From NCBI GenBank assembly GCA_965197905.1, contig CBDAOB010000005.1, positions 96,001-160,000 of the forward strand: 64,000 nucleotides of DNA. Direction: 5' to 3'. Within the stretch, counting starts at the first letter, position 1, and each line of letters opens with the position of its first letter. The notes under the pieces were generated by a model that saw only the letters and a list, made by a program, of their open reading frames with translations, ran no database searches and was not told where the DNA came from. This DNA comes from Candidatus Latescibacterota bacterium. Lineage in GTDB: Bacteria; Latescibacterota; UBA2968; UBA8231. This document shows, piece by piece, positions 1 to 62,321 of the stretch. The position numbers and the translations under genes are program-made.

Positions 1-947
1 GCGACGCCGGGCATGCTTTGCTGTCCATGGCGCAGCAAAGAGTGAAAGGTTCCCTTGCCCCGGTTGATCTTGGAAACGTACCCGGTGTCGCGGCTCGAGC
101 GGCTCATCTCGGTAAAGGCATACGCCGGAATATCCTCGAAGCCGAACATGTCGATCGGATGGCCCCGCACCCATGAGGTGTCCGGCCGGGTATAGTAGTT
201 GAACTCCAAGATGCAATCGGGATGGGCTTCGCGAATGCGACCGAGGATATACTTCACCGCTTCTTTGGTCTTCTCGTACCGCCACCTGATCCAGCGGCGG
301 AAATCGAGCGAGCCGAAGTCCACCTCCCGCGGCATCTGCAATCCGGTTTCGTCACGCAGGAGCTTGGTGCAGACCTCGCAGCAACACCCGGGGTACTCCC
401 GCCCTCCCTGGTGGGAGCCAATGTTGGTGTCATCGAAGTAGAAGCCGTCCAGGTCCAGGTTGTCGAGCCATTCGATCAAATAGTCGGAAACCCAGTCCCT
501 AAAAGGAGAGTTGAGGCAGAACCAGCCCTGGTTCTCGATGAACGACCGGTCGTCGAAGAGGAAGTGCATCAGCCACTCGGGATGCAAAGGCACTAAGGGT
601 TTGCAGAAGATGAGCGGGTAGTAGGAGATGACGATGATCCCTTTTTCGTGCAGCGCCTTGATGTAACTGGGCATCCGGTCCTCGTCCACATCGTCGCGGT
701 ACGGTAAGATCTTGGAGCGGTAGCGCGGAGTGCCGCGATCGATTTCTCCGTTCAGAACCGTCGCCTCCAGGCCCACGTCCGCGGCCCATTCGGCGAACTC
801 GGCTACGGACAGTCCGGTGTACTCTTTGTCCGGCCGCGAGACCGCCGGGTAGGCTTCCGTCTTGCACACCCGCTTCTCGTACGGCAGCTGGCGCAGCCGT
901 TCTGCTGTCGATCCGACTCTTTCCAGTACGACTCCTGGATTTGGCAT
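1..947 (-). CDS. Putative glycoside hydrolase (GHL6/GH42-like TIM barrel), runs off window edge
   Basis: Read by hand, not in the ORF track: MPNPGVVLERVG...HPEWLM...WFCLNSPFRDW...LDGFYFDD...GCCCEVC; AGAGGAG RBS 9 nt upstream. Confidence 0.6.
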   Translation of the reverse strand, partial: MPNPGVVLERVGSTAERLRQLPYEKRVCKTEAYPAVSRPDKEYTGLSVAEFAEWAADVGLEATVLNGEIDRGTPRYRSKILPYRDDVDEDRMPSYIKALHEKGIIVISYYPLIFCKPLVPLHPEWLMHFLFDDRSFIENQGWFCLNSPFRDWVSDYLIEWLDNLDLDGFYFDDTNIGSHQGGREYPGCCCEVCTKLLRDETGLQMPREVDFGSLDFRRWIRWRYEKTKEAVKYILGRIREAHPDCILEFNYYTRPDTSWVRGHPIDMFGFEDIPAYAFTEMSRSSRDTGYVSKINRGKGTFHSLLRHGQQSMPGV

Positions 948-38308: not shown

Positions 38309-39670
38309 ATGAAATCTGAACAGAAATTGCAGATCCTGCTGGTTGACGACGAGGAGATCGTACATCAGACAGTCGGTGATTATCTGCGCGAATCCGGCGC
38401 CGAGGTAACGTCGAGGCACGACGGTCGTGAGGCCCTCGATGCCATAACCGGAACCGACTACGATCTCGTATTGGCGGATATCAGAATGCCACGCCTGGAC
38501 GGTTTATCGTTTCTCGAAGAGGCGCAGCAGGTCCGGCCGGAGCTTTCGGTCGTGATCATAACCGGGCACGGGAACATGGAGACTGCTGTGCAGGCGCTCC
38601 GACTTGGAGCTGCCGATTTTCTCACCAAGCCGGTAAAGCTTATAGAGTTGGATGCGGTCCTCGAAAAGGCGGTCCGGCTGAGCGCGTTGCGCAAGGATCG
38701 GCTGCATCTGCGGGAAACCATCCGGGGTATTCAGGAAGCGGAGGGGTTGGGAGACGGCGGACATCAATTTCTCGGAACGAGCACCTCAACCGAAGTCATT
38801 CGAACCCAGGTGCAGCGCGCGGTTGAAGCTGAGTGTGATACAATTCTGATTACGGGCGAGACCGGTACTGGCAAGGAAGTGGTCGCTCGCGAGATCCACC
38901 GCCAGGCCTTTCCAGCCGAGCGGCCGTTTATCGCCGTAAGCTGCCCCGCGCTGCCAGATACTCTGGTGGAAAGCGAGCTCTTTGGGCATGTGAAGGGCGC
39001 TTTTACGGGCGCGCAGACAAACCGCGCCGGATACTTCGAGTTGGCGGATGGTGGCACCCTTTTCCTCGATGAGGTTGGAGATCTCTCAGACGCCGCGCAG
39101 GCGAAGCTGTTGCGGGTCCTCGAGACCAGGGCGCTGCGAAGAGTGGGGGCGGCCAAGGAAACCGAGGTTGAAGTCCGGGTCGTCGCGGCGACCAATCGGT
39201 CCCTCGAGCAGATGGTGGCGACGGGCAGCTTCCGCAGTGACCTGTTTTACCGGCTCAACCTATTTGGGATCGAGCTAACGCCGCTCAGAGAACGGCGCGA
39301 AGACATTCTCATCCTCGCCAAACACTTCTTGGAGGTTCGCAACCGAGGACGGTCCGGTCGGGCTGCGGGATTTTCGCCAGTTGCCGAAGAGATCCTGAGC
39401 GAATACGACTATCCCCGCAACGCCCGCGAGCTACGGAACCTCGTGGAGCGGGCGGCAATTCTCTGCGCCGAAGAGGAAATCCAAGCGGAGCACCTCAGCC
39501 TTCCACAGCGGAACGCGGAACCCGCTCCCGGGGACGCGCCTGCCACCGAACGAGCCGCAATCATCCACGCGCTGGAGGAAGCGAAGTGGAACCGTCGCCG
39601 AGCGGCGGAGATCCTCGACATGCCGTACTCCACCTTGCGATACAAGATGGGCAAACTGCAGATTGTCTGA
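38309..39670 (+). CDS. Sigma54-dependent response regulator (NtrC/AtoC family)
   Basis: REC domain, GETGTGKE, ESELFGH, GAFTGA, LFLDE, C-terminal HTH. Confidence 0.95.
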   Translation: MKSEQKLQILLVDDEEIVHQTVGDYLRESGAEVTSRHDGREALDAITGTDYDLVLADIRMPRLDGLSFLEEAQQVRPELSVVIITGHGNMETAVQALRLGAADFLTKPVKLIELDAVLEKAVRLSALRKDRLHLRETIRGIQEAEGLGDGGHQFLGTSTSTEVIRTQVQRAVEAECDTILITGETGTGKEVVAREIHRQAFPAERPFIAVSCPALPDTLVESELFGHVKGAFTGAQTNRAGYFELADGGTLFLDEVGDLSDAAQAKLLRVLETRALRRVGAAKETEVEVRVVAATNRSLEQMVATGSFRSDLFYRLNLFGIELTPLRERREDILILAKHFLEVRNRGRSGRAAGFSPVAEEILSEYDYPRNARELRNLVERAAILCAEEEIQAEHLSLPQRNAEPAPGDAPATERAAIIHALEEAKWNRRRAAEILDMPYSTLRYKMGKLQIV

Positions 39671-40841
39671 AACGCTGCTGATCGTCGAGGATGAGGCCAT
39701 CGTAGCCGCCGATTTGAAGGCTACTCTCGAACGTAGCGGATACACGGTTCTCGGACCCGTGGAATCCGGGGAGGTCGCCGTTGAAATAGCCGCCGAGCAG
39801 CACCCCGATCTCATCCTCATGGACATCCGGCTTGCGGGCGAGATGGACGGCATCGAGGCTGCCGCGCGAATCCGCCAGCAGCTCCACCTTCCCGTGGTGT
39901 TTCTGACCGCCCATTCGGACGAGGCCACGCTCTCCAGGGCACGGGAATCCGCACCCCTCGGGTTCTTGTTGAAACCCTTCAACGAGCGCGAGCTTCGAAC
40001 CACCATCGAGATCGCAATACACCGCCACGAGCTGGAGGAGAAGCTTCGAGTTACGACCGAAAATCTCGAGCGTGAAACCGCGGAACGGCGTCGCGCTGAG
40101 AGCGAGCTGGATCTGTACCGCGCCCTTACGATTCGCTCCGACAGGCTTCGGTCGCTCGGCCAGATGGCGGCCGGCATCGCCCATGAAATCAACCAGCCTC
40201 TCGTCGGCGTCAGGGGTCTGGCCGAACACATCCTGCTGGGCTTGGAACGCGGCTGGGATTCCAGCGGGGAGACACTCAAAAGTCGTGTCGAAAAGATCAT
40301 TGAGCAGGCCGATCGCATGGATCACATCGTCGAACACGTGCGTATGTTCGCCAGAGAAGGAGATCGGGCTACCTTCGAGCAGGTCAATGTTAACGATGTC
40401 GCGGAGTCAGCAGCGGCGTTGCTGACAAGTCCTTTTCGCCAGGAAGGGGTTCGACTGGATACCGAGCTGGGGACCGAACTGCCCCCTGTGCACGCCAATG
40501 TGTTCTCGCTCGAGGAGGTGCTCATCAACCTGCTCAACAACGCCCGTGACGCCGAGCTGGATCGCCCGGAGGTCGAGTCACCTCGGGTACTCTTGCAGAC
40601 TCAGGTTCAGGGCGAGAACGTGCAGATTGCCGTAATCGATCACGGTATCGGAATCCCGAAGGAATACAGCGACCGAATCTTCGATCCGTTCTTCACCACC
40701 AAAGAACCAAACAAGGGATCAGGATTGGGATTGGCTATCTCAAGGAATATCGTCGATGACTTTGGCGGCAAGCTTGAAATTCGTTCAACGCCGGACAAGG
40801 GCTGTACAGCCTTGATATCCCTGCCGTTCGCAGCCAAGTAA
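39663..40841 (+). CDS. Hybrid REC-histidine kinase
   Basis: LMDIRL receiver; AHEINQPL; PFFTTK..GSGLGL. Confidence 0.92.
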   Translation: MSETLLIVEDEAIVAADLKATLERSGYTVLGPVESGEVAVEIAAEQHPDLILMDIRLAGEMDGIEAAARIRQQLHLPVVFLTAHSDEATLSRARESAPLGFLLKPFNERELRTTIEIAIHRHELEEKLRVTTENLERETAERRRAESELDLYRALTIRSDRLRSLGQMAAGIAHEINQPLVGVRGLAEHILLGLERGWDSSGETLKSRVEKIIEQADRMDHIVEHVRMFAREGDRATFEQVNVNDVAESAAALLTSPFRQEGVRLDTELGTELPPVHANVFSLEEVLINLLNNARDAELDRPEVESPRVLLQTQVQGENVQIAVIDHGIGIPKEYSDRIFDPFFTTKEPNKGSGLGLAISRNIVDDFGGKLEIRSTPDKGCTALISLPFAAK

Positions 40842-41822: not shown

Positions 41823-42519
41823 TCAGAACAAGATCTTTGCGCCCAGGGCGAGTCCAGAGCCGTCGAGGCGGGGATTGTCGTCTTCATACTCGTTAAACCT
41901 GTACTCTGCGACGGCCTGGAAGCGGGAGTCTATCCGTAGGTTGAGCTGGGGTTCGATTACCCAACGATTGGGACTCGATTTGTCGATGTTTAGATCCGCA
42001 AATCCGGTTATTGACAGCAGGTTGGTCAATGGAATGAAGTAGATCAGGCTTGCCTGACTTCCGCTGTCATCCGTCTCATAAGGGTGCACGCGCAGGCGAA
42101 GCCATCCCTTGTTGCGGGCCAGTCTCGAGAGCCCTTGTTGGTAGGTGAGACCGAACCGGAAGACCTCATTTCCGCGGCCAGCGAAATCGTCGTATTCTGC
42201 CTGGAGGCTCAGGCCCCGAATTCCTCCCACCCAACGCGGATCCAGAGCACGCTGGAGGCGGTATTCGAGGAAGTACCTCGTAAGGTCAAAGCGCGCCAGA
42301 CGATTTCTTCTGATCGCTGTGGAGATCGACAAAGCCAAACACGGAAAAACCCAGCGGCAGTGCCTTGGTACTGCTCTGAAGGGCGGCCGTGTTGAAATTT
42401 CGGCTATCGAAGTAGTAGGTCGCCTGGGCCGAGGTCTTCCACGGGTTATTCTCCCCGCCCCAGGTTGTATCAATGGCTGCTGCGCCCACGAAAGTTAGAA
42501 CTAAGATCAATTGTCGCAT
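41823..42519 (-). CDS. Putative outer-membrane beta-barrel protein, frameshifted near 42296
   Basis: Signal peptide, amphipathic strands, terminal Phe; removing one G joins ORFs 42286-42519 and 41823-42473. Confidence 0.6.
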
Positions 42520-42850
42520 GTCACCTTTTCCTAGAAACAGACCTCTGGCCAGGGAGACAAGGCAAACGTGGCGTCCTTACCTTCCCGTCGCAAGGCCCTC
42601 TGAAACTTGACGAACTGCAGCAAGTCCATGTACATAAGACGTTTTTCGAGTAAGTGCAATGAACAAACACACCTCGGAGAGCAAGCAGCGGTAGAGGAAA
42701 GCGTGAGCAATCAGATTTGCAGCAGAAAACGAGTGCGCAAGGGCTCGGTTCGCAGAGGTTTGTCCACCGGCGCAGATTGTTGACCTCGACCGTGAGATTG
42801 GTCATTGTCGTGTGCCGAAACGCAGCAGCACTTCTATGGAGGTTAGACGC

Positions 42851-44143
42851 ATGTATACGCTGCTCACAGGAGCTGTTTTCGTTGGCTTGATGCTATCGGT
42901 AAACTCGTCCCCCGCCGTCGCTTCACCCCTAAAGCTGTCCCACGGCTGGAGTGTGCACATCGGCGGTGGCAAGACCGCGACCGCAGAGGCTATTGGCATG
43001 ATGGAGAAGGGGTTGGACAATCCCCGTTTCGTCGTTTTGTACACGACCGCCGACTATGGCGAACCGGAAATCGCCGCCACCCTCCTCGAGCGTTATCCGG
43101 AGGCCAAACTCTTCGGCATGAACGTCTACCGAGGGGTATTCACTTCCGACGGTCTCCACATTGGAATACGTGGATCTCTGGCCATGATGGGGTTCGAGGG
43201 GGGTGATCTGATCTTTGGAGTTGCCGCACGTCAGGTGAAGGACGGCGTCGACATCGCGGCGATCACGCGCGAAACTTTTACAGCTGCCGCCCAGAACGCC
43301 GGTGTCGCGTCTGAAATTCCGCCATCCATGGTTCTACTTGGTGCTCTCAAGGGCACCGAAGATGCGGTCGTCGCCGAGCTTGGAAAACTGATGCATTCGG
43401 ATGTCCCACTGATCGGGGGCACCCACTCCGACAACAGTTTTCGGCCCGGGTACGTACTCGGAAACAACGAACTCATCGAGCACGGTATCGTTATTGCCTT
43501 GATTTATTCGGAGTCGAGCATTGGCGCCTCTTTCTATTCTGGTTTTGTCGGCAAGAAGAAAGCCGGGGTCATTACGGCGAGCGACGGACGACTTCTCAAG
43601 GAGATAGACGGCCGACCGGCTCAGGATGTGTACCGGGAGTGGGCGGGCGGTCACTTCGACGACATCGATACGTCCACCAAGAATGTTCTTGTGATGAAGA
43701 GCGCCACGCGCCCCCTCGCCAAAGCCATCCATCTCTCCAATGGCAAACTGCGTTACATTCCCGTGCGGCCGCAGCGGTTCAATATGGATGGCTCACTCAG
43801 CATGGGTGGCGACGTCACGCTCGGAGATACTATCTACTATGTCGAAGGCAACAAGGAGGCGTTGCGTAGACGGGCGGCTGCCGTGGCTCGCGACGCCATG
43901 GTGAACGGGAAAATCAAGGTGAAAAACGTGGCAGGTGGTCTGCACATCTACTGTGCCGGAGCGGCCAAGACCATCGGTCTCGAGCCGGACGGCGAGGCGG
44001 TGAGAATGGTTGATGAAGTGCGAAAGGCGATGAGAGACACTCCGTTAATCGGCGGATTTACCGCAGCTGAACAGGGCGCCATTCCCGGCTACGGAATATT
44101 CAACGGCAACCTGATGAGTTCGATGGTTGTGTTTCCAAAATGA
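42851..44143 (+). CDS. Exported FIST-domain sensor protein
   Basis: Signal peptide (..SPAVA); PLIGG, EIDGRPA..VY, IYCAG, GGFT..EQG, NL..S..VF. Confidence 0.85.
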   Translation: MYTLLTGAVFVGLMLSVNSSPAVASPLKLSHGWSVHIGGGKTATAEAIGMMEKGLDNPRFVVLYTTADYGEPEIAATLLERYPEAKLFGMNVYRGVFTSDGLHIGIRGSLAMMGFEGGDLIFGVAARQVKDGVDIAAITRETFTAAAQNAGVASEIPPSMVLLGALKGTEDAVVAELGKLMHSDVPLIGGTHSDNSFRPGYVLGNNELIEHGIVIALIYSESSIGASFYSGFVGKKKAGVITASDGRLLKEIDGRPAQDVYREWAGGHFDDIDTSTKNVLVMKSATRPLAKAIHLSNGKLRYIPVRPQRFNMDGSLSMGGDVTLGDTIYYVEGNKEALRRRAAAVARDAMVNGKIKVKNVAGGLHIYCAGAAKTIGLEPDGEAVRMVDEVRKAMRDTPLIGGFTAAEQGAIPGYGIFNGNLMSSMVVFPK

Positions 44144-46065
44144 CCTCAAGGAGCAAGCTGAGCGCGATGTTGGGACTTGGTCTGAAGATCAGGGTCTTTG
44201 CCCTGATCTGCGGACTGGTAATCTCCTTCGTCGTGGCGCTCGCGATCTTGTCGCTTGAGGATCTCGCCGACCTGCTGCACGAGGACTTTCGCGCTAAGGG
44301 AGAACTTGTAGCCAGCTACTTTGCCCGCACATCAGTAGAAGGGATCATCATCGAGGATGAGGTCAGCCTGGGAGAAGCGATCGATCGACTGTTTGAGATC
44401 GAAGACGTCGTCTACGCCGGCATCTACGACAGCGAGCGCACCCTGATCATGCAAAAGGCGACGATAGAAACGGATGAACTTTACGGTTTGGATGCAGATT
44501 ACGGAAACGACACGGTGATCACCGAGCTGCTCTCGGGCGGAGATGGCGACATCTCCGTGCTCGATCTTACCGTGGCCGTCTTCGACGAGCAGTCGGATCG
44601 CATCGGCTGGGTTCGCACCGGCATCAGCTTGCAGGAGATCGACCGCAAGATATGGACTCAACGGTTGCAGTCCCTGGGCCTCCTCGGTGCCTTCATCCTC
44701 GTCGCTCTGGCGCTGACCTATCTGGCGGCCAACAGTATCGCCAATCCCATCAACGCCCTCGCCATGAAGGCTGAGTACATCGCCTCCAGCCGAGACTATA
44801 GCATGAGGGCCGAAAAAGCTCGAAACGACGAGATCGGCCTGCTCGTCGACAGCTTCAACGATATGCTCGAAGAAATCGAGCAGCAGCAAACGGCGCTTGC
44901 GGACAACGAAGAGCGTTTCCGATCTCTTGTCGAAACCACCAGCGACTGGATCTGGGAACTGGATGGGCACGGCAACTACACCTACGCCAGCCCCAAGGTT
45001 GGCGATCTACTGGGGTACGAACCGCAGCAGGTGTATGGCAAGAGCCCCGCTGACTTCATGACGCCAGAAAGTGCCCGCCGGTTCGCTTCGGCGCTCGATC
45101 AAATGGTCCAATCGAAAAGGCCAGTGCTGGGGCTGGAGAGCGAAGGCGTGCACAAGAGCGGTGAGCGGATGGTTTTCGAGATGAACAGCGTACCCATTTT
45201 GGATGGTGGCGGTAATCTGGTGGGGTACCGCGGCATGGACCGCGACATCACCGACCGGAAGAGAATGGAGGAGGAGCTCGAAGCTCAACGCACCCTGGAA
45301 CTGCGCTCCGACCGCTTGCGCTCACTGGGCGAGATGGCCGCGGGCATCGCCCACGAGCTCAACCAACCATTGACCGGTGTGCGCGGCATGGCCGAACATT
45401 TCCTGATCGGCCTCGAAAGAGGTTGGCCACTGACCGACGACGATATTCGAGATCGCACCGGCCGCATCGTCGAGCAGGTCGATCGCATGGTTCACATCAT
45501 CGAACACATTCGCATGTTCGCGCGAGAAGCCGGCAAACCGGAGACCGCGCTGGTACAGGTCAATGACGTGGTGCAGGACACCGTGGTGATGGTGGGGGCC
45601 CAGTTTCGAGCCCACGGACTGGACCTAGTCGTCGACTTGGCCGAAAACCTGCCCGACGTCCAGCTGAACCGATATTCGCTGGAGGAAGTCGTGCTGAATT
45701 TGCTGAGCAATGCACGCGATGCTGTTGAACAGCGCCAAGGCGGAAACGGGCAACCCGCAGTGAAGAAGGATCTGACAGATACCCCTCCGGCACGTATCTC
45801 CATTCGAACCTCGATGGAGGGGGTCGATCAGAGCGCGATGGTCACGATCGACGTAGAGGACAACGGCGCCGGCTTTCCACCAGAGCTGGCGGAGCGAGTG
45901 TTCGACCCGTTTTTCACCACCAAAGATCCAGACAAGGGCACGGGTCTGGGTCTATCCATCTCCAGATCGATCGTCCACGAATTCGACGGTTCCATACAGA
46001 TCCGATCCGTCTCTGGCGAGGGTACCACCGTGTCCGTGCAGGTGCCGCCGGCCCAGCCAGATTGA
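44140..46065 (+). CDS. Membrane sensor histidine kinase (periplasmic domain-HAMP-PAS-HisKA-HATPase)
   Basis: Two TM; DEIG.L..SFN.M; RDITDRK; AHELNQPL; GTGLGL. Confidence 0.93.
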   Translation: MTSRSKLSAMLGLGLKIRVFALICGLVISFVVALAILSLEDLADLLHEDFRAKGELVASYFARTSVEGIIIEDEVSLGEAIDRLFEIEDVVYAGIYDSERTLIMQKATIETDELYGLDADYGNDTVITELLSGGDGDISVLDLTVAVFDEQSDRIGWVRTGISLQEIDRKIWTQRLQSLGLLGAFILVALALTYLAANSIANPINALAMKAEYIASSRDYSMRAEKARNDEIGLLVDSFNDMLEEIEQQQTALADNEERFRSLVETTSDWIWELDGHGNYTYASPKVGDLLGYEPQQVYGKSPADFMTPESARRFASALDQMVQSKRPVLGLESEGVHKSGERMVFEMNSVPILDGGGNLVGYRGMDRDITDRKRMEEELEAQRTLELRSDRLRSLGEMAAGIAHELNQPLTGVRGMAEHFLIGLERGWPLTDDDIRDRTGRIVEQVDRMVHIIEHIRMFAREAGKPETALVQVNDVVQDTVVMVGAQFRAHGLDLVVDLAENLPDVQLNRYSLEEVVLNLLSNARDAVEQRQGGNGQPAVKKDLTDTPPARISIRTSMEGVDQSAMVTIDVEDNGAGFPPELAERVFDPFFTTKDPDKGTGLGLSISRSIVHEFDGSIQIRSVSGEGTTVSVQVPPAQPD

Positions 46066-49131: not shown

Positions 49132-49147
49132 TGGCATGATCCTTGCA
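49132..49147 (+). promoter_or_regulatory. Sigma54 -24/-12 promoter
   Basis: TGGCATGATCCTTGCA, GG-N10-GC. Confidence 0.72.
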
Positions 49148-49207
49148 TTCCCAGCCGACGGATGACTACGAAGGAAGTGGTCGTCGATCTTAACGCAAGA
49201 GGTAAGC

Positions 49208-50541
49208 ATGAAGCCAAAATGGGAGATTGTCCTCCTAATCGTATTCAGTTTGTGGGGGGACATATATGCTGCGGAAACTGGATCGAAGCTCGCTGGGTTC
49301 GACGCACTTGAAGAGGTCAGGAGCTTGAGCGCTCGTTTGGAGGCTTTACAGACAGAACTCGAAAGTCGCGAAACGCTGCTGACGGATGACGTTGTCGACC
49401 TTTCAGGCGAAGAGGTGAGCGTAGGCGAAGGTGGCGACGGAGTCCCCAGTGTACTCGCAAGACCTTGGTATCACAACATCGACGTGTCCGGATTGGGCGC
49501 GTTTTGGTTGATCGATTCCGGGAGAGACGGCGCCCGTCCGGATCCGGGTTTTGTCATCAAGGAGTCGAGCCTGTTCATCGAAGCCCAGGCCTGGGAAGAC
49601 GTCTCCGTGTTCTTCGAAGTGCAGACGACGATGCTCCAGCGTGATAGCACACACGACGTTCGGACCGCCGAGCTCTATGCTCATTTCCGCAACATCCTGC
49701 GGAGATGGGGAGACGGCCTGCTGAACATCAAGATCGGTCGCGTCGACATTCCGTTTGGGGAAGAATATCTCTGGCAGGATGCCCCTGACAACCCTCTAGT
49801 CTCAAACTCCGCGGCCTATCCGTGGCTCTGGGATGAGGGCGCGGTATTTTACGGAAACATCGAGAAAGTGGGATGGGTCGGGGGGCGGTCATGGACGGCT
49901 CGATTCGCCGGAGTGTCGAAGAGAACGCGGACAAATCGATTACCCTCAAAGTCTATGGGCAGCCATGGAAGCCGCTCTACCTGAGCGCCAGTTGGATGAG
50001 AAACGGAGAGACATCGGCCGGGCCTTTCCTTCTGGGAGGAAGCCTGTTCCAACCGGTCGGTGTTGGTGGAGAGTCGATCGCGGGAGTGAGTCCAAGCGCC
50101 ACCGTCAACGCATCTCTCTACGAGCTCTACACGAAGACCGACCTGGGAAGACTCGATGTTGACATGTCCTTCGGTCGGGGTCGTATAGATGATGCCGCCG
50201 ATACATTCGACAGAGACCTCACCTGGTTCATGGTTCAACCATTGTACAAAGTCACGAAGGATGTAGATGCGGTTGCACGCTACAGCGAGATCGGCACATA
50301 TGACGACGCCGAAGGATACCACTTCGACGGAGAATTTCTCGCCAGTGGAAATGCCGCCTATGGATACGACGCGAAACGGCTGACAAGGCTGTCCGTGGGT
50401 CTCAATTGGAAGATCAATCCGCGAGCGAAAATCAAACTCGAGGTGGGACGGGATCGCTACTTCACAGTCGACCAATCACCCCTCGACCCGGCCAATGACG
50501 ACCGGAGCCATGCGGCTCTAGAACTCGCTGTTTCCTTCTGA
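49208..50541 (+). CDS. Outer-membrane porin-like beta-barrel, frameshifted at a G6 run (49880-49885)
   Basis: Signal peptide and coiled coil; IKIGR.DIPFG; C-terminal ELAVSF. Confidence 0.7.
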
Positions 50542-50548
50542 GACTACC

Positions 50549-51550
50549 ATGAAGGCTCACATACTGATTCCGGTAGTCTCGCTCGCCATGCTGCTCCGAA
50601 TTGCGCACGCGCAGAGTTCAGAGATTCATCCGTCGATGGCCGATTTCGTAACTGCTCTCAACGAAGCGACAGCCCAAATCGGAACGGGTCACGTCGAGGA
50701 GCTACTGTCGGCGACTCGCGCGCTCGCGGCGGCCTCACGGGAGACAACTGGACTGCAACCCTACGCTAACGACGACAAAGGGGGTTCCTTCGACAGATAT
50801 CTCGAAGACCTCAGAAATCTCAGCGATGACCTCGTTGTTCACGTTGAAAATGGACAGACACCGGGAGCGGTCTCGGCGCTGCGGGAGATTAGAAATACGT
50901 GCGTCCGGTGCCACACCATCTTCCGCCCGAACACCGAGTCCAACTTTCCGAATCGGGGAAACATCATTCATGGCCAGGTGGCTATAGAGAAAATGAACGG
51001 GGACGACAGGACGGATCGCTCGAACGTCGTCGTTTTCCTGGATCGTGCGCCCGAAGGCCACCCGCACAGGCCCCACATCGCGATCAGTCAGGCAGACCGT
51101 GTTTTCACACCTCGGGTGACGGCTATCGTCAAGGGAACAACTGTTGATTTCCCCAACGATGACATAATTTTCCACAACGTCTTTTCTCTGTCCAAGACCA
51201 AGGCGTTCGATCTGGACATCTACTCCCCTGGAAAATCCAGATCAATAACCTTCGCGAAACCGGGATGGGCGAAGGTCTACTGTAACATCCATCCGGGCAT
51301 GATAGCGCACGTGATTGTTCTGGATAACCCATACTTTGCGGTGTCTGACATCAACGGGCATTTCGTCATTCCCAATGTTCCCGACGGCAAATACAGCATC
51401 CGGACGTGGCACGAATTCGCCAGCAGCATGAAGAAGAGGGTCGATGTAACCGGGGAAGTTGTCGAGGTTGTCGACTTCCAAATTCAGGAAGACAAACGGC
51501 TTCGCGCCCACAAGAACAAATTCGGAAAACAGTACAAGGGCAAGTACTAG
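50549..51550 (+). CDS. Periplasmic cytochrome c'-like heme domain fused to a cupredoxin-like domain
   Basis: Signal peptide; helical domain ending CVRCH; V.FPN.D...HNVFS and YCNIHPGM. Confidence 0.8.
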   Translation: MKAHILIPVVSLAMLLRIAHAQSSEIHPSMADFVTALNEATAQIGTGHVEELLSATRALAAASRETTGLQPYANDDKGGSFDRYLEDLRNLSDDLVVHVENGQTPGAVSALREIRNTCVRCHTIFRPNTESNFPNRGNIIHGQVAIEKMNGDDRTDRSNVVVFLDRAPEGHPHRPHIAISQADRVFTPRVTAIVKGTTVDFPNDDIIFHNVFSLSKTKAFDLDIYSPGKSRSITFAKPGWAKVYCNIHPGMIAHVIVLDNPYFAVSDINGHFVIPNVPDGKYSIRTWHEFASSMKKRVDVTGEVVEVVDFQIQEDKRLRAHKNKFGKQYKGKY

Positions 51551-51571
51551 TAAAGGCCGGAAAAAATACGA

Positions 51572-53593
51572 GTGACACACCTGAGAATCAGGACCAAGAT
51601 CTTCCTCGGCACGATAATTGTATCCCTGTGTTTTATCGTATTTACCCTGTTCGCAACGAATCGTCTGATGAGCAGCATATCGGACGATCAAGCCGTGCAC
51701 AACCTTCGCATCGGGAAGAGGGCTTACGATCGATTCACCAGCTTGCGTCGCAACCTGATTGCCACCGAGGCCAGATCGCTGGCTCAGGCGCCTCATCTTC
51801 GAGCGGTTATGAACATTCCTAATGTCGATCACCAAACAGTCTGGTACACCGCGAGCCAGTTGTTTGAGGTCGTGGATGCCCCTTTGATTCTCCTGACTGA
51901 CGCTTCCGGGACGGTGTTGGCAAACACGGCCGACTCCACATCCCATGGACGGGACCTCAGTTCGCAAGAATGCGTCGAGGGAGCACTCAGGGGCGCAGAG
52001 CACAGCAGCATCTGGTACTATGCCGGCTCTCTGTTTCGAATCGTTGCGGTTCCGGTTACACTGGGGGAACAGATTCTGGGGACGCTTGTGCTCGGAGAAC
52101 GACTGGACGACGCCCATGCTCGCGAAATCAGAGAATTCACCGGTCGGGACGCGATGATCCTGCACGACGGCGAACTGGTCTGCTGGTCGACCGAGGATTC
52201 GATGGCCGAGCGGGCGACCGAGGAGGAGGTTGCGTTACTTCACGGTCAGATCGCGGCCTCCCACGACGCGTCGCCGATTACGAGCGAACTCGGAGGCAGG
52301 CGATCACTCGTAGCGATATCAAACATGTCAGACTCGAGCGCCCACATTGTGCTGTTTCAGGGTTTGCCGGAACTGGAAGGCGGTATTGCGGCCGTGCGGA
52401 ATTCGATCCTCGCTTCGGGTGTGCTGAGCATCATTCTCGCCGTCGTCCTCAGCATCTGGGTATCGTTCCGGATCAGTAAACCGATCCATCAGCTCAAGAA
52501 TGCGGCGGAACTCCTAGGACACGGACAGTTGAGGGACCGCGTTGCCATCAACTCGCAAGATGAGTTGGGCCACCTCGCCAGCACGTTCAACGCCATGGCC
52601 GATCGTCTTCAAGCGGCCTACAAAGAGCTCGAGTGTGCAAATCGCGACCTGGAGCGGCGCGTTGAAGAACGTACCGGCAGTCTTCGTCAGGAAATCGAGG
52701 ATCACAAAAGAACCGACGAAGAACGGCAAAAAGCAGAGGAGGAGCTCGCTCTCCAGAGGACGCTCGCCGCCAGGTCCGACAGACTGCGCTCACTAGGCGA
52801 GATGGCTGCCGGGATAGCCCACGAACTGAATCAACCTCTCGTCGGGGTCCGAGGACTTGCCGAGTACATCCTGATCGGGAACGAAAAGGGCTGGGACGTA
52901 TCCGGATCGCAGCTTAACGACCGACTGTCGCGCATCATCAAGGAAGCCGACCGCATGACCCACATTATCGAGCACGTGCGGATGTTCGCCCGGGAAGCGG
53001 GCAAGCCGGAGGTGTCGGATGTGTCCGCTAACGATGTCGTCCAGTCGAGTGTTGGCATGCTCGCCGCTCAGTTCCGTTCACTCGGGATCGATCTCAGAAC
53101 CTCCCTGGCTGAAGGATTACCTGTGATTCCGGTCAACGCGTTCTCGCTTGAAGAGGTCTTTCTGAACTTGCTGAGTAATGCACGTGATGCTCTCGAGGTT
53201 GTCCCCGAAGCGATAGCCGGAGGCCGATCAGTTGACATTTCGACCGCCCTGAATTCGTCGAACGGGGCACGTGGTGTCACAGTTACCGTTCGCGACAACG
53301 GCGTAGGGATTGATGCAGCTAATCTGGAGCGGGTGTTGGATCCTTTCTTTACGACCAAAGATCCCGATAAGGGAACGGGCCTCGGATTGACGATCTGCAA
53401 ATCGATCATCGAAGGATTTGGAGGCTCGTTCGAGCTGGCTTCGGAGCAAGGTGTGGGCACCGAGGTGCGGATTTGTCTTCCCTCACGAACGGCCGTGCAA
53501 CACGCCGCGAATCCCGGTCCTACCGATGGTCCGCCAACGAATGATCCGTTAGGCTCGCATCGATCTCTACCCCAGGGTGACCGCCATGATTGA
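51572..53593 (+). CDS. Membrane sensor histidine kinase (Cache-like-HAMP-HisKA-HATPase)
   Basis: Two TM; DELG.LA..FN.MA; AHELNQPL; GTGLGL. Confidence 0.93.
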   Translation: MTHLRIRTKIFLGTIIVSLCFIVFTLFATNRLMSSISDDQAVHNLRIGKRAYDRFTSLRRNLIATEARSLAQAPHLRAVMNIPNVDHQTVWYTASQLFEVVDAPLILLTDASGTVLANTADSTSHGRDLSSQECVEGALRGAEHSSIWYYAGSLFRIVAVPVTLGEQILGTLVLGERLDDAHAREIREFTGRDAMILHDGELVCWSTEDSMAERATEEEVALLHGQIAASHDASPITSELGGRRSLVAISNMSDSSAHIVLFQGLPELEGGIAAVRNSILASGVLSIILAVVLSIWVSFRISKPIHQLKNAAELLGHGQLRDRVAINSQDELGHLASTFNAMADRLQAAYKELECANRDLERRVEERTGSLRQEIEDHKRTDEERQKAEEELALQRTLAARSDRLRSLGEMAAGIAHELNQPLVGVRGLAEYILIGNEKGWDVSGSQLNDRLSRIIKEADRMTHIIEHVRMFAREAGKPEVSDVSANDVVQSSVGMLAAQFRSLGIDLRTSLAEGLPVIPVNAFSLEEVFLNLLSNARDALEVVPEAIAGGRSVDISTALNSSNGARGVTVTVRDNGVGIDAANLERVLDPFFTTKDPDKGTGLGLTICKSIIEGFGGSFELASEQGVGTEVRICLPSRTAVQHAANPGPTDGPPTNDPLGSHRSLPQGDRHD

Positions 53594-53990
53594 AGAGATG
53601 AGAATATTGGTTGCTGATGACGAGCTCAAACTACGGGAGTTCTACCGCAATGCCGCCTACATCAGTGGCTTTTCGCAGGTAGATACCGTCTCTTCAGGAG
53701 AAGAGGCTTTGACGTGCGCCATACGCAACAGATACGACCTGATAGTGCTGGATATCGCCATGCCAGGAGCTGGTGGACTTGAGATCATATCCTTGGTTAG
53801 GAATCTGACCTATCACGCCGTAATCGCAATTATCTCGGGAAGGATTCCAGCTACGATCCCGTCGGAAGCTAGAGATTGCGCCGACGCAATCATGGAGAAA
53901 CCGATAACCATCGAAATGTTTCGACATTTGTTGCAATCAGCAGCCCAAGTCAGACATATCCTTGAGGGCGTCAGAAGATTGGAGGGTTGA
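53586..53990 (+). CDS. Single-domain response regulator
   Basis: VADDE, LDIAMP, ISG, EKP. Confidence 0.88.
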   Translation: MIEEMRILVADDELKLREFYRNAAYISGFSQVDTVSSGEEALTCAIRNRYDLIVLDIAMPGAGGLEIISLVRNLTYHAVIAIISGRIPATIPSEARDCADAIMEKPITIEMFRHLLQSAAQVRHILEGVRRLEG

Positions 53991-54055
53991 TGTTGCTTGC
54001 AAACATCAGGTATATCGAGCGCCGAGGAATCGGCCTCGCACAGGAATCATAGCCG

Positions 54056-55162
54056 ATGTTCCGACAATTCGAGTCTCGCGGAGTTGACACGAAAAGAAGA
54101 GCTAGGTCGGGCGGCCCCAGGAACAAAGAGCTAATCGGCGAGGAGCTGATCAAGGGCAATATTACCGGTAACTCAACTATTCGGGGACCGAACTCTCTCC
54201 TCGTACAGGGATCCATAATTGGCACAGTCGACGAGCCCTGCAAGGTCAAGATAGACGGCGACTTGACCGTATCGGGTTCTATGCTCAATGCAGATATCCG
54301 TGCGCGTCGCGTTCATGTTGGGGCTTCCGTGAAGGGCTGTAGCATCCTTGCTGCCGGAAGGATCGAAATCAAAGGAGACACAACAGATGTCAAGGCCACG
54401 TTGTCAACCTTTGAATCACATCAGTACAAACTTGAGGAATTGCAATCGGTCATATTGCGAGCCAAGGAGGAGCTTATTGATCTCCGCCAGGCGTACAAAC
54501 AGTGCGGAAAACAGCTCAGTAAGCGCTGTCGGGCACCCCGAGCTGGAATAAATCTCAATATCGGCGGGCTATTGCGAGAACGCCGTGGATGCATAGAAGT
54601 GGATCTCAGTGTAGTGTACAACGCTTTAAAGGAACTGACAGTGCGGGAATTGGAGACGGCACTAACATCGTTCTTTAGCAAGGGAATTATCGGGTTTCTC
54701 GCCAAATCAAATCGGGAGTTCATTTCCAGGGGGCCCGCCCAGGAGAAAACCTTCCTGCGAGTAATTGGCGGATTGGCCACACTATTTGCTCAGGCTCGAG
54801 CGGTCGATCGCAAAGCCGAGGAGATCGAAAATTGCGGGCGCCAACTCGACGAAATGATCGACGAATTGACGGCCGATGAATCCGAACTCGCCATAGCAGG
54901 ACAGTTGAACCCGAATGTCACCGTCGAGTTCTTGCTCCCTTCTGCTCGAATGGGGCCAAATGGCGAACTAGAAATCAAGTACGACTCTGCGAGTTGGGCC
55001 ATTCGATCGGTCAAAAAGAACGGCGAATGGGAACTGGCGAAACGAAGTATCCACGAGGACTCTCTGATTATCTGCGGCGCCGAAGATTGGCGCAATGTCT
55101 CACTAAGGGTTTGCGAAAACAGGATCGTCATGGATTCGAACCACATAGATTCTTCCGATTGA
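54056..55162 (+). CDS. FapA/DUF342-like beta-helix and coiled-coil protein
   Basis: Repeated I.G.I/V.GS beta-solenoid turns, coiled coil, terminal IAG.L.PNV.V. Confidence 0.5.
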   Translation: MFRQFESRGVDTKRRARSGGPRNKELIGEELIKGNITGNSTIRGPNSLLVQGSIIGTVDEPCKVKIDGDLTVSGSMLNADIRARRVHVGASVKGCSILAAGRIEIKGDTTDVKATLSTFESHQYKLEELQSVILRAKEELIDLRQAYKQCGKQLSKRCRAPRAGINLNIGGLLRERRGCIEVDLSVVYNALKELTVRELETALTSFFSKGIIGFLAKSNREFISRGPAQEKTFLRVIGGLATLFAQARAVDRKAEEIENCGRQLDEMIDELTADESELAIAGQLNPNVTVEFLLPSARMGPNGELEIKYDSASWAIRSVKKNGEWELAKRSIHEDSLIICGAEDWRNVSLRVCENRIVMDSNHIDSSD

Positions 55163-55226: not shown

Positions 55227-56696
55227 ATGACATCGGTCTCGATGTTGCGCACAATCCTGGAGCGCTGTGGAGTCGTTCTGACTACCATTCTGGTCAGTGC
55301 CACGTGTATCCTGCTGACCATTCTCATTTCCGTTGGAGCGCTGTTGTTGACAGGCAATCAAGACTGGGGCCTCATCCTGCTCTTGTCAGTCGTCTGCCCA
55401 GCCTGCATAGCGCCTCCGATCGCCTATTCCTATAGCAGAGTGTTGCACCAACTCGAAGCCAGTCAAACCAACCTGCAGCGCGAGTTGGAGGCACGTGACC
55501 GCGCGAGCGAGCTAGCGCTGGAACTAGAGATCCAATTTCGCCAGGTACTGGAACACACCAGCGAAGCGTTTTTCATGGCGACTCCCACATTTCGTAAGTT
55601 CTACTATGTCAGTTCGGCGTATGAAACGATATGGGGCAGATCGATTGAATCGCTCTATGCCTCGCCGGCCAGTTTTCTGCGCAGTGTGTACAAGCACGAT
55701 CGAGCGAAGATTCTCAAGGAGGTGACGGCCGGTTTCCGCAATCAAGAGCACGAGTTCGAGTATCGTATAGTGCGTCCCGATGGCGAACTAAGGTGGATTC
55801 GATCCCGCTTGTTAGGTGTCGAAGGTTCGGGGGCAAATCGCCGGACGGTGGGATTTTCCGAAGACATAACGGAGCGCAAACAAGCGGAAGGGGAACTGGA
55901 GATCCAGCGCGCCCAAAGCATGCGGGCCGACCGCCTGCGATCACTGGGAGAGATGGCCGCCGGCATCGCCCACGAACTCAATCAGCCGTTGGTGGGCGTG
56001 AGAGGTCTGGCTGAACATAGCTTGATCGGCATGGACAGGGGTTGGCAGCCGGAAGACCCGACGAGCAGAGAGAGGTTTGGCAAGATTATCGAGCAAGTCG
56101 ATCGCATGGTGAACATCGTAGACCACGTTCGTCTCTTTGCGGGGGAAGCGGGAAAAGCGGAGAGTTCGACCGTAAACATCAATGAGGTCGTGCGCTCGAG
56201 TGTAGAATTGATCCGAACTCAGATGCAAACTCACGGAGTTTCGCTGGAGTGCAAGCTTGCCGATGGACTTCCGACGATCTCGGCGAATCCGTATTCACTG
56301 GAAGAGGTAGTGATCAATCTAATTAACAACGCGCGGGAGAGCATCGAGGACAGGAGAAGCAACAACGGCGACTCGTCCGGCGGACACGTGCGAATCTGCA
56401 CTAGATTCGATGGAGAGGCGGTTGGGAAGCGGGTTGAAGTCGTGGTGTCGGATGACGGTATCGGGATGCCGGTTCAGGTTCTGGAACGCGCCTTCGATCC
56501 CTTCTTTACAACCAAACCTCCCGACAAAGGTACCGGTCTTGGGCTCTCCGTGTCGCGCTCAATCGTCGAGCAGTTCGGTGGAGAGATCGAGTTGAGATCC
56601 AACGGTGTGGGTGGCGGCGCCACGGTCCGATTCTCAATTCCGGTCGGCGTCGCTGAAAGCGGTGTCGGACCAACCACGCCAGGTAGGCCGCGATGA
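55227..56696 (+). CDS. Membrane PAS sensor histidine kinase
   Basis: Two TM; EYRIVRPDGE.RWI, EDITERK; AHELNQPL. Confidence 0.93.
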   Translation: MTSVSMLRTILERCGVVLTTILVSATCILLTILISVGALLLTGNQDWGLILLLSVVCPACIAPPIAYSYSRVLHQLEASQTNLQRELEARDRASELALELEIQFRQVLEHTSEAFFMATPTFRKFYYVSSAYETIWGRSIESLYASPASFLRSVYKHDRAKILKEVTAGFRNQEHEFEYRIVRPDGELRWIRSRLLGVEGSGANRRTVGFSEDITERKQAEGELEIQRAQSMRADRLRSLGEMAAGIAHELNQPLVGVRGLAEHSLIGMDRGWQPEDPTSRERFGKIIEQVDRMVNIVDHVRLFAGEAGKAESSTVNINEVVRSSVELIRTQMQTHGVSLECKLADGLPTISANPYSLEEVVINLINNARESIEDRRSNNGDSSGGHVRICTRFDGEAVGKRVEVVVSDDGIGMPVQVLERAFDPFFTTKPPDKGTGLGLSVSRSIVEQFGGEIELRSNGVGGGATVRFSIPVGVAESGVGPTTPGRPR

Positions 56697-61327: not shown

Positions 61328-62321
61328 ATGAGCGGGATCAGAAATCGGCCGTTGGGCAAGATAGGTCTGGAGGTAACCGAGGTTGGCTTGGGCGGGGCCT
61401 TCATCCATGAGGGCGCGACGGCGCACGATGAAGCTATTCGCGTTGTCCATCGCGCTTTGGAACTGGGAGTGAACTATTTCGACACCGCCCCTCTCTACGG
61501 GAATTCTCAGGAAGTCCTGGGAGAAGCTCTCCAGGGGCACAAGGAACCCTATCTCTTGGGCACGAAGTGCGGGGCGATGGGACTGGCGGACGGGCCCGTA
61601 CCGCGAGTTGGACGCCTTCAAAGTGCAGCTTGATCAGACGCTGCGGGCTCTCCGGCGCAATTGCGTGGACATCCTCTACATACACGAGGCCGATTGGAGG
61701 GTGTATTGGCAGGCCGAGGTCGCGCCGCGCAAGACAAGGCACATATGCGCAGACGGCGTTTACGACTACGACAACGCGCCAGTGACGCAGTTCCTGGTGT
61801 GGGCCAAGGAGCAGGGAATGGCAAAGCATCTGGGTATTTCCGGCAACAATGCTCACCACCTGGCGAAGGTACTACATGAGATCACTCTCCCCGTGGAAGT
61901 CGTACTGGTTGCATCTCAGTACAGCCTGATTCGGCGCAACGCGAGACAGTACCTTCTGCCACTGGCCAGGAAATTGGGCCAAGGTGTGGTACTCGGGGCG
62001 CCTCTGCAGCAGGGGGAACTGGCCGTTCCTCATGAAGAGTGGATAGAACATCCTCCTGATTGGATGGACGACGACCTTCGGGCTCGATTTGAAATGCTCT
62101 ACGCGATCCATAAAGAGACCGGGATCAGTCTGGCCGCACTTGCAATGCGATTTCTGCTGGCGGACATGGATGTAGCCACCGTGATTCCTGGTGCGGCGAC
62201 AGTGCAACAACTGGAGGAAAATGTCGGCTGCGCAGCTTTGGGCCGTCTTTCACCGGACGTCCATTCCCGACTGGATGCGCTGGGTAGAGTGTTCGAGGGT
62301 GTGCGTGGTGTAGACTATTGA
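61328..62321 (+). CDS. Aldo/keto reductase, frameshifted at a G4 run (61571-61574)
   Basis: FDTAPLYG, TKCG-RWDW.., YIHE, IPGA....QLEEN. Confidence 0.82.

Follow-up and report, generated by a model that had tools for sequence, protein, structure and literature searches.

A heme-copper fusion protein from a porin-dCache kinase locus of Candidatus Latescibacterota: a candidate periplasmic redox co-sensor

What is the role of a secreted protein that carries both a c-type heme motif and a blue-copper motif, and whose gene lies between those of a porin and a membrane-bound sensor kinase? The question is raised by 64,000 nucleotides of a Candidatus Latescibacterota genome (contig CBDAOB010000005.1, positions 96,001 to 160,000), referred to here as the window. 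Between window positions 49,132 and 55,162 the plus strand encodes, in order, a porin, a heme-copper fusion protein, a dCache kinase, a receiver and a FapA-like protein, with intergenic spacings of 7, 21, −8 and 65 nucleotides. A sequence-only reading of this locus had proposed a heme-copper relay that links an outer-membrane channel to the kinase. Its genes, coordinates and motifs (CVRCH at residues 118-122 of the fusion protein, HNVF at 209 and CNIHPGM at 245-251) were recovered as described, and a relay into the kinase is still the best reading, supported by the motifs, the porin-fusion-sensor gene order and the presence of cytochrome c maturation genes. In the form we favour, held with slightly less than even confidence, the secreted protein is a periplasmic redox co-sensor of the dCache kinase: the heme would pass electrons to the copper, and the receptor would read the state of the copper protein.

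The fusion gene (50549..51550) encodes 333 residues, of which about residues 1-21 read as a Sec-type signal peptide. A search with the fusion protein found 1,591 proteins, and most of the 120 listed were full-length fusions. Seven putative cofactor residues, C118, C121, H122, H209, C245, H248 and M251, were invariant in all 108 aligned proteins drawn from those 120, far above chance. The predicted structure (mean predicted local distance difference test score, pLDDT, 91.7; predicted template-modelling score, pTM, 0.87) contains both domains recognised previously and a third, transthyretin-like domain that had been overlooked. The four-helix bundle (residues 28-125; 50630..50923) has modelled helices at 28-43, 49-64, 75-100 and 104-125, with the CxxCH (118-122; 50900-50914) near the C-terminus of the domain. 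Structure comparison with VIA placed the cupredoxin (residues 173-258; 51065..51322) inside a transthyretin-like sandwich formed by residues 138-172 and 259-316 (50960..51496). The sandwich matched 5aq0_B over model range 138..316 (Z 11.2, root-mean-square deviation (rmsd) 2.2, 81 aligned), and its match to PF13620 was below the cut-off. The high pTM suggests that, in the model, the domains are held in a fixed arrangement.

The cupredoxin scored 22.8 bits against PF00127 (cut-off 21.2), and the assignment is supported by Foldseek and VIA matches. It has the fold and the His/Cys/His/Met ligands of a type-1 copper site, with an amicyanin-length loop, and these ligands (H209, C245, H248, M251) were invariant at 121 of 121 paired loci. 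The protein falls far below the NCBIfam equivalogs for amicyanin (15.7 against 110.2 bits) and plastocyanin (21.4 against 87.85 bits). A conserved C-terminal tail, H321-x-x-K-x-G-x-x-Y-x-x-x-Y333 (51488..51547), follows the sandwich, with H321 present in 120 of 121 rows. Variant architectures were also seen: tandem duplications, an SH3 fusion and a TPR fusion of the copper protein (P0242, P0253, P0258, P0284, P0316, P0337), and one locus (L130) where two forms stand in tandem between porin and receptor, the copper gene by itself and a shorter version fused to a CxxCH part.

The heme domain had been labelled a cytochrome c′, with an emphasis on nitric oxide (NO). A four-helix bundle, a single C-terminal CxxCH, an export signal and maturation genes place it among the class II cytochromes c. 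For the maturation genes, which the sequence-only reading had wished to see confirmed, CcmE and CcmF were intact and CcmC was present, split only by an assembly error; no match to ResB was found in the genome, which is 91% complete. The distal site of cytochromes c′ is usually occupied by a non-binding Leu, Phe or Tyr. In the fusion family this position appears instead to be Met30 (codon 50636-50638), which was present in 138 of the 138 rows reaching that column, out of 145 fused proteins. In a profile alignment Met30 falls on Met7 of cytochrome b562, whose axial ligands are His102 and Met7 according to PMC8082397. By alignment position, the distal residue of class IIa (c′) is therefore absent and the helix-1 Met of class IIb apparently present. 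The family profile matched engineered cytochrome cb562 over its whole length (residues 3-106, E 4e-7), whereas matches to cytochrome c′ covered mostly the C-terminal helices (E 3e-4 or worse), and PF01322 (cytochrome c′) was below its cut-off (E 0.049).

Structural comparison was consistent with this register. The bundle aligned over 24..126 on 1..106 of cb562 and over 26..134 on 28..135 of NaxLS, where residue 30 falls on residue 32, a Cys that is changed to Met in 6r6n. The profile range on 2yl0 (positions 32-133 on 16-126, E 0.0013) would put the Met three residues later in c′; it was discounted, as both the pattern of helices and the ranges from structure comparison speak for the axial register. 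With a Met fixed where the sixth ligand would be, the heme is predicted to be six-coordinate and to serve in electron transfer, not to trap NO, and the fusion heme is probably not a cytochrome c′.

To define the conserved unit we compared neighbourhoods at the 80 best GTDB loci and 80 metagenome loci, picked by similarity to the fusion. At the 26 fused GTDB loci the porin was upstream in 25 (the other starts at a contig end) and a Cache receptor downstream in 25. Eleven of the 80 metagenome loci were fused, with the porin in 11 and the receptor in 10, and at least two of these loci appear to duplicate GTDB records. The arrangement recurs in numerous uncultured bacteria; fused loci occur in Planctomycetota, Marinimicrobia, KSB1, Gemmatimonadota, Latescibacterota and one acidobacterium. 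The closest named loci, L009 and L003, are from Ca. Latescibacterota; among 60 relatives of the window genome, the family was matched in 22, with an intact fusion in one only and a split fusion in one. When the copper protein was not fused, a Cache receptor still lay within 1.8 kb of its gene at 50 of 54 GTDB loci. The porin-fusion-sensor part of the gene-order unit proposed earlier is thus conserved, and its remaining two genes are not. A FapA-like gene was found at 0 of the 80 GTDB loci, and the FapA-like and receiver pair has a separate paralog in the same genome (L086, a FapA-like gene beside a receiver). Both genes were rejected as members of the module, and the receiver that overlaps the kinase is likely a local output outside it. 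At one gammaproteobacterial locus (L035) the porin and receptor lie, as assembled, on the strand opposite the copper gene.

The heme partner of the copper protein differs between lineages. Three unrelated partners were found: the fused class II cytochrome c, a secreted truncated hemoglobin in Proteobacteria, and a pentaheme cytochrome in Myxococcota. Loci of the Myxococcota type carry an extra gene between the copper gene and the receptor, with four or five CxxCH motifs in 38 of 39, and all ten of the intervening genes scanned matched multiheme cytochrome families. In Proteobacteria the homolog is annotated as a 'methylamine utilization protein' and occurs with DUF3034, a group 1 truncated hemoglobin and a dCache_3-GGDEF-EAL protein (two of three plasmid loci). 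Its homology to the window proteins is clear for both the copper protein (E 1e-33 to 8e-45) and the receptor sensor region (E 4e-22 to 4e-34). DUF3034 was present in 21 of 400 genomes sampled from the gammaproteobacterial class. Twenty DUF3034 regions contained the copper gene in 12, a globin in 12, a Cache receptor in 11 and all three in 10; the globin accompanied 11 of the 12 copper genes, and a signal-like peptide stands at the start of these globins. One Comamonas locus (L118, NZ_CP104280.1) has a DUF4394 gene before the copper protein, and no globin or DUF3034 among its nine annotated features.

A quick tree built solely from the copper part (86 rows, two of them in the globin group) placed every one of the three heme groups on one side of a branch, with Shimodaira-Hasegawa approximate likelihood ratio test (SH-aLRT) values of 98, 89 and 98. 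The heme folds have no relation to one another, so that wherever the tree is rooted each was recruited on its own. No adjacent c-heme gene was found in Acidobacteriota and several other lineages. The fusion, which had been singled out as the unusual part of the locus, is therefore not its core: the core is the copper protein and the receptor, and the heme is optional and was recruited three times. The same genome holds more distant relatives as well. L081, L082 and L085 are cupredoxin-transthyretin paralogs that keep C-x2-H-x2-M and have no Cache neighbour; judged from translations, two adjoin heme-copper oxidase genes and one a di-heme peroxidase-like gene.

The receptor (51572..53593; 673 residues) has the architecture transmembrane segment (TM)-dCache_3-TM-HAMP-HisKA-HATPase, which agrees with its earlier identification as a Cache-HAMP kinase. 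Histidine kinase output was found at 19 of 19 fused loci scanned. Across the wider family the same sensor region stands before histidine kinases, a nucleotide cyclase, Ser/Thr kinases, PP2C phosphatases and GGDEF-EAL proteins. Because the outputs differ behind one sensor region, it is the input pair of copper protein and sensor that is kept. Within the periplasmic Cache region no His, Cys or Met column is conserved, the best reaching 29 of 121; it is thus unlikely that the receptor binds a metal of its own. Complex prediction with dCache residues 31-277 and the mature fusion gave a score of 0.00 in both runs, which counts neither for nor against contact. Four window kinases (39663-40841, 44140-46065, 51572-53593 and 55227-56696) share a core at 51-56% identity; for orthologous receptors of other phyla, identity is 24-34% over the core and 34-45% over the Cache region. 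It looks as though the output domain of the kinase was replaced by a local paralog.

A globin or a pentaheme cytochrome beside the same copper protein and receptor elsewhere makes it likely that the set reports redox conditions outside the cytoplasm. We infer the stimulus, the contact and the direction as follows. A redox-active solute would enter through the porin, or the porin would present the signal. The heme would then equilibrate the copper with the periplasmic redox pool or with the admitted solute; its predicted His122/Met30 six-coordinate form would pass electrons intramolecularly to the type-1 copper. The dCache domain may read the oxidation state of the copper protein by contact and so switch the kinase, which in this strain likely phosphorylates the overlapping receiver. 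The porin-dependent step has probably been lost here. A broader proposal, which we advance a shade more tentatively, is of a pan-bacterial system of trans-envelope redox signalling. The copper protein would be the universal adaptor of the dCache family with its five kinds of output, and the three independently recruited heme folds would be interchangeable inputs of electrons or oxidants.

Several observations weigh against the co-sensor reading. The loci were chosen by similarity to the fusion, and kin among them are not independent. The assignment of the heme also has limits: with bundle Z scores of 12-14, c′ and cb562 are not told apart, and the range offsets are not residue-level alignments. 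The cytochrome c′ of Rhodospirillum molischianum has a distal Met that does not bind, so that ligation by Met30 is predicted only. Twenty-three GTDB loci belong to neither the fused nor the pentaheme group; two of them (L009, L011) are damaged fusions and the rest have no conserved adjacent c-heme gene, globins not having been searched for there. The two other module copies in the window genome likewise carry no fused heme. With so many modules lacking one, the core function does not require heme. As gas-binding proteins, truncated hemoglobins agree with a gas or enzymatic role no less than with an electron relay. Finally, lesions in the window porin, L009, L120 and P0040, described below, may reflect relaxed selection in this lineage.

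Four other explanations were considered. The protein could be catalytic, converting a porin-admitted solute such as nitrite, O2 or peroxide so that the dCache pocket binds product or substrate with no lasting protein contact. A second site could be made up of H321 (120 of 121 rows), W287 (112) and H288 (63); the highest-ranking matches of the cupredoxin are copper-enzyme domains (6hbe, 9cck), and both globin and pentaheme partners can be catalytic. We nevertheless think it rather unlikely, as no type-2 or type-3 copper motif was recognised and the same receptor family pairs with chemically different hemes or with none. That optional heme is what gives some weight to a copper-status sensor, in which apo and loaded cupredoxin would report periplasmic copper arriving via the porin and the heme would set the Cu(I)/Cu(II) state, since the only cofactor residues kept in every lineage are the copper ligands. 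A full His/Cys/His/Met site is, however, typical of electron transfer, and no recurring copper-transport or efflux neighbours were noticed in the annotated loci read, in which no systematic search for them was made; we regard this possibility as unlikely.

The proposal that a c′-like heme binds NO (or CO) directly, and that the liganded protein signals to the kinase, draws on the class II fold. The heme domain matched NaxLS with Z 14.2 (rmsd 2.4, 104 aligned) and Shewanella c′ with Z 13.8 (rmsd 1.8, 104 aligned), and NaxLS is called an electron/NO shuttle in a preprint. The proteobacterial partner is a globin, and a FIST/NosP-like gene, with a match below the cut-off, lies 5 kb upstream. The Met invariant at the sixth-ligand position, the full-length fit of the profile to cb562 but not to c′, the position of the FIST gene outside the conserved unit and the many modules without heme make direct gas sensing improbable. 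It is more doubtful still that there is no functional contact with the receptor, the porin and heme-copper protein being an electron-transfer or uptake unit that the receptor regulates or travels along with. Heme and blue copper are typical carriers, and the contact is so far an inferred one, but the sensor region stays with the copper protein while outputs, barrel and heme partner change, and no oxidoreductase is conserved in the module. We therefore retain the periplasmic redox co-sensor as the preferred reading.

The FIST/NosP-like gene belongs to a possible separate pair at window positions 42812-46065. Its product matches PF08495 and PF10442 (NF041558 below cut-off) and has an apparent signal peptide; the gene overlaps that of a single-Cache/PAS kinase and is divergent from an unassigned beta-barrel-like gene (41823-42473). 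The FIST/NosP-like protein and the kinase may form a second periplasmic partner-receptor pair.

The porin had been described as a single gene. A porin gene is indeed present, but six consecutive G (49880-49885) mark the point where it breaks into a 5′ piece of 258 residues (49208..49984), out of frame after the run, and a 3′ piece of 222 residues (49873..50541). The pieces match profile positions 12-196 and 198-416, and the homologs are single open reading frames of about 400-460 residues. The break was checked in contigs of four sequencing runs, X1-X4, of which X1 and X2 may be the source sample and X3 is a second sample. Contigs of X1, X2 and X3 carry the identical six G across the break with no gap; two letters are missing at the G run from one contig of X4 (depth 4 of 9), a run whose sample contains a diverged strain as well. 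As a control, all four runs added the one G that repairs the split ccmC of the assembly (G000:C4, L243:10029). The runs thus reveal assembly errors such as that in ccmC, yet three of them retain the G run of the porin; an assembly fault was therefore rejected there, and the break is real in this strain (two samples, one possibly the source). Other split genes of the genome, such as that at 61328-62321, may also be assembly errors.

The intact homolog L009 was modelled as a 16-strand barrel with an N-terminal helix, and in Foldseek this model matched OmpT, OprP and Omp32 at E about 1e-12; it is thus of the general porin type, and the 3′ piece in the window ends in Phe. CxxCH was absent from every porin-matching open reading frame among the listed loci, so that the protein is not a Cyc2-like cytochrome-porin. 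Pfam gave no family for the pieces or for four intact homologs, NCBIfam none for the pieces, and DUF3034 and DUF4394 did not match the porin profile. The closest relatives carry lesions of their own, through decay or assembly error: the fusion and kinase are frameshifted in L009, the kinase is truncated in L120 and the fusion is frameshifted in P0040. CxxCQ replaces CxxCH in L011 and P0090.

Each domain, and sensing through a partner and a receptor, is already known; what the window adds is a class II fusion of predicted His/Met type and the finding that heme was recruited three times. Cytochromes b562 and cb562 and the class IIb c556 resemble the heme domain in their four-helix bundle, C-terminal heme His and N-terminal-helix Met (no c556 entry being among the matches listed); the fusion differs in its natural CxxCH, its cupredoxin-transthyretin module and its signalling operon. 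Cytochromes c′ (6a3k, 1cgo, 2ccy) share the fold and C-terminal CxxCH, whereas the fusion has the invariant Met at the distal position and a shorter helix 1. The best structural match, tied with c′, was NaxLS (Kusta0087/0088, Kuenenia stuttgartiensis), which unlike the fusion is a heterodimer with Cys at the Met30-equivalent position and has no copper domain. Amicyanin, plastocyanin, the Nitrosopumilus purple cupredoxin (5fc9) and the C-terminal cupredoxins of 6hbe and 9cck have the same fold, ligands and C-x2-H-x2-M loop, but the cupredoxin of the fusion is inserted in a transthyretin-like sandwich. The proteobacterial DUF3034-globin-copper protein-GGDEF/EAL clusters have a homologous copper protein and sensor region; they differ in using a globin rather than a c-heme, in a DUF3034 protein with no detectable homology to the porin, in having no C-terminal tail and in a cyclic di-GMP output.

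In LuxP-LuxQ, TorT-TorS and YfiB-YfiR-YfiN a periplasmic partner is read by a membrane receptor, and YfiBNR also has an outer-membrane component. The partners in these systems are solute-binding or inhibitor proteins that are not known to have a copper or heme site. Known periplasmic co-sensors bind small molecules, and a co-sensor working through a copper site would, if the proposal is right, be a new input chemistry for Cache receptors. DUF3034 and the adjoining secreted group 1 truncated hemoglobins would likewise gain a function. The family comprises 2,938 clusters at 50% identity with E 1e-30 or better, some repeat proteins included, and cultured carriers (Polyangium, Chondromyces, Caballeronia, Novosphingobium) make the idea testable now. 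The fusion may also be useful for electron-transfer work as what its motifs predict to be a natural single-chain heme c-to-blue copper pair. Titles and abstract openings were searched for the fusion and the module without turning up a paper on either, subscription papers being mostly outside the search, and the accessible portions of PMC11904497 and PMC8717448 do not discuss the gene neighbourhood.

The locus was also said to follow a sigma54 promoter. A −24/−12-like site with one mismatch does lie at 49132..49147 on the plus strand, 76 nucleotides before the porin start, and is plausible rather than established: the window holds three such sites against 1.91 expected, and 30 of 100 shuffles reach three, so that the site alone is not above chance. 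A similar site at a similar distance is present in the two closest relatives, L009 and L120, and the genome encodes RpoN and 28 matches to the sigma54 activator family. Such sites were found in 3 of 40 porin upstream regions and 2 of 80 control segments, and sigma54 control was rejected as a general feature of the module. The downstream genes were as previously identified. The single-domain receiver (53586..53990) overlaps the kinase stop by 8 nucleotides, and the FapA-like protein (54056..55162) matches PF03961 with E 1.8e-6, below the curated cut-off. Elsewhere in the genome, L083 (G000:C4 about 1,680,400-1,685,200) and L084 (G000:C4 about 1,599,000-1,602,700) are copper protein-Cache modules, each with a barrel-like gene and without a fused heme; one ends in a hybrid kinase (assembly-split) and the other in an adenylate/guanylate cyclase.

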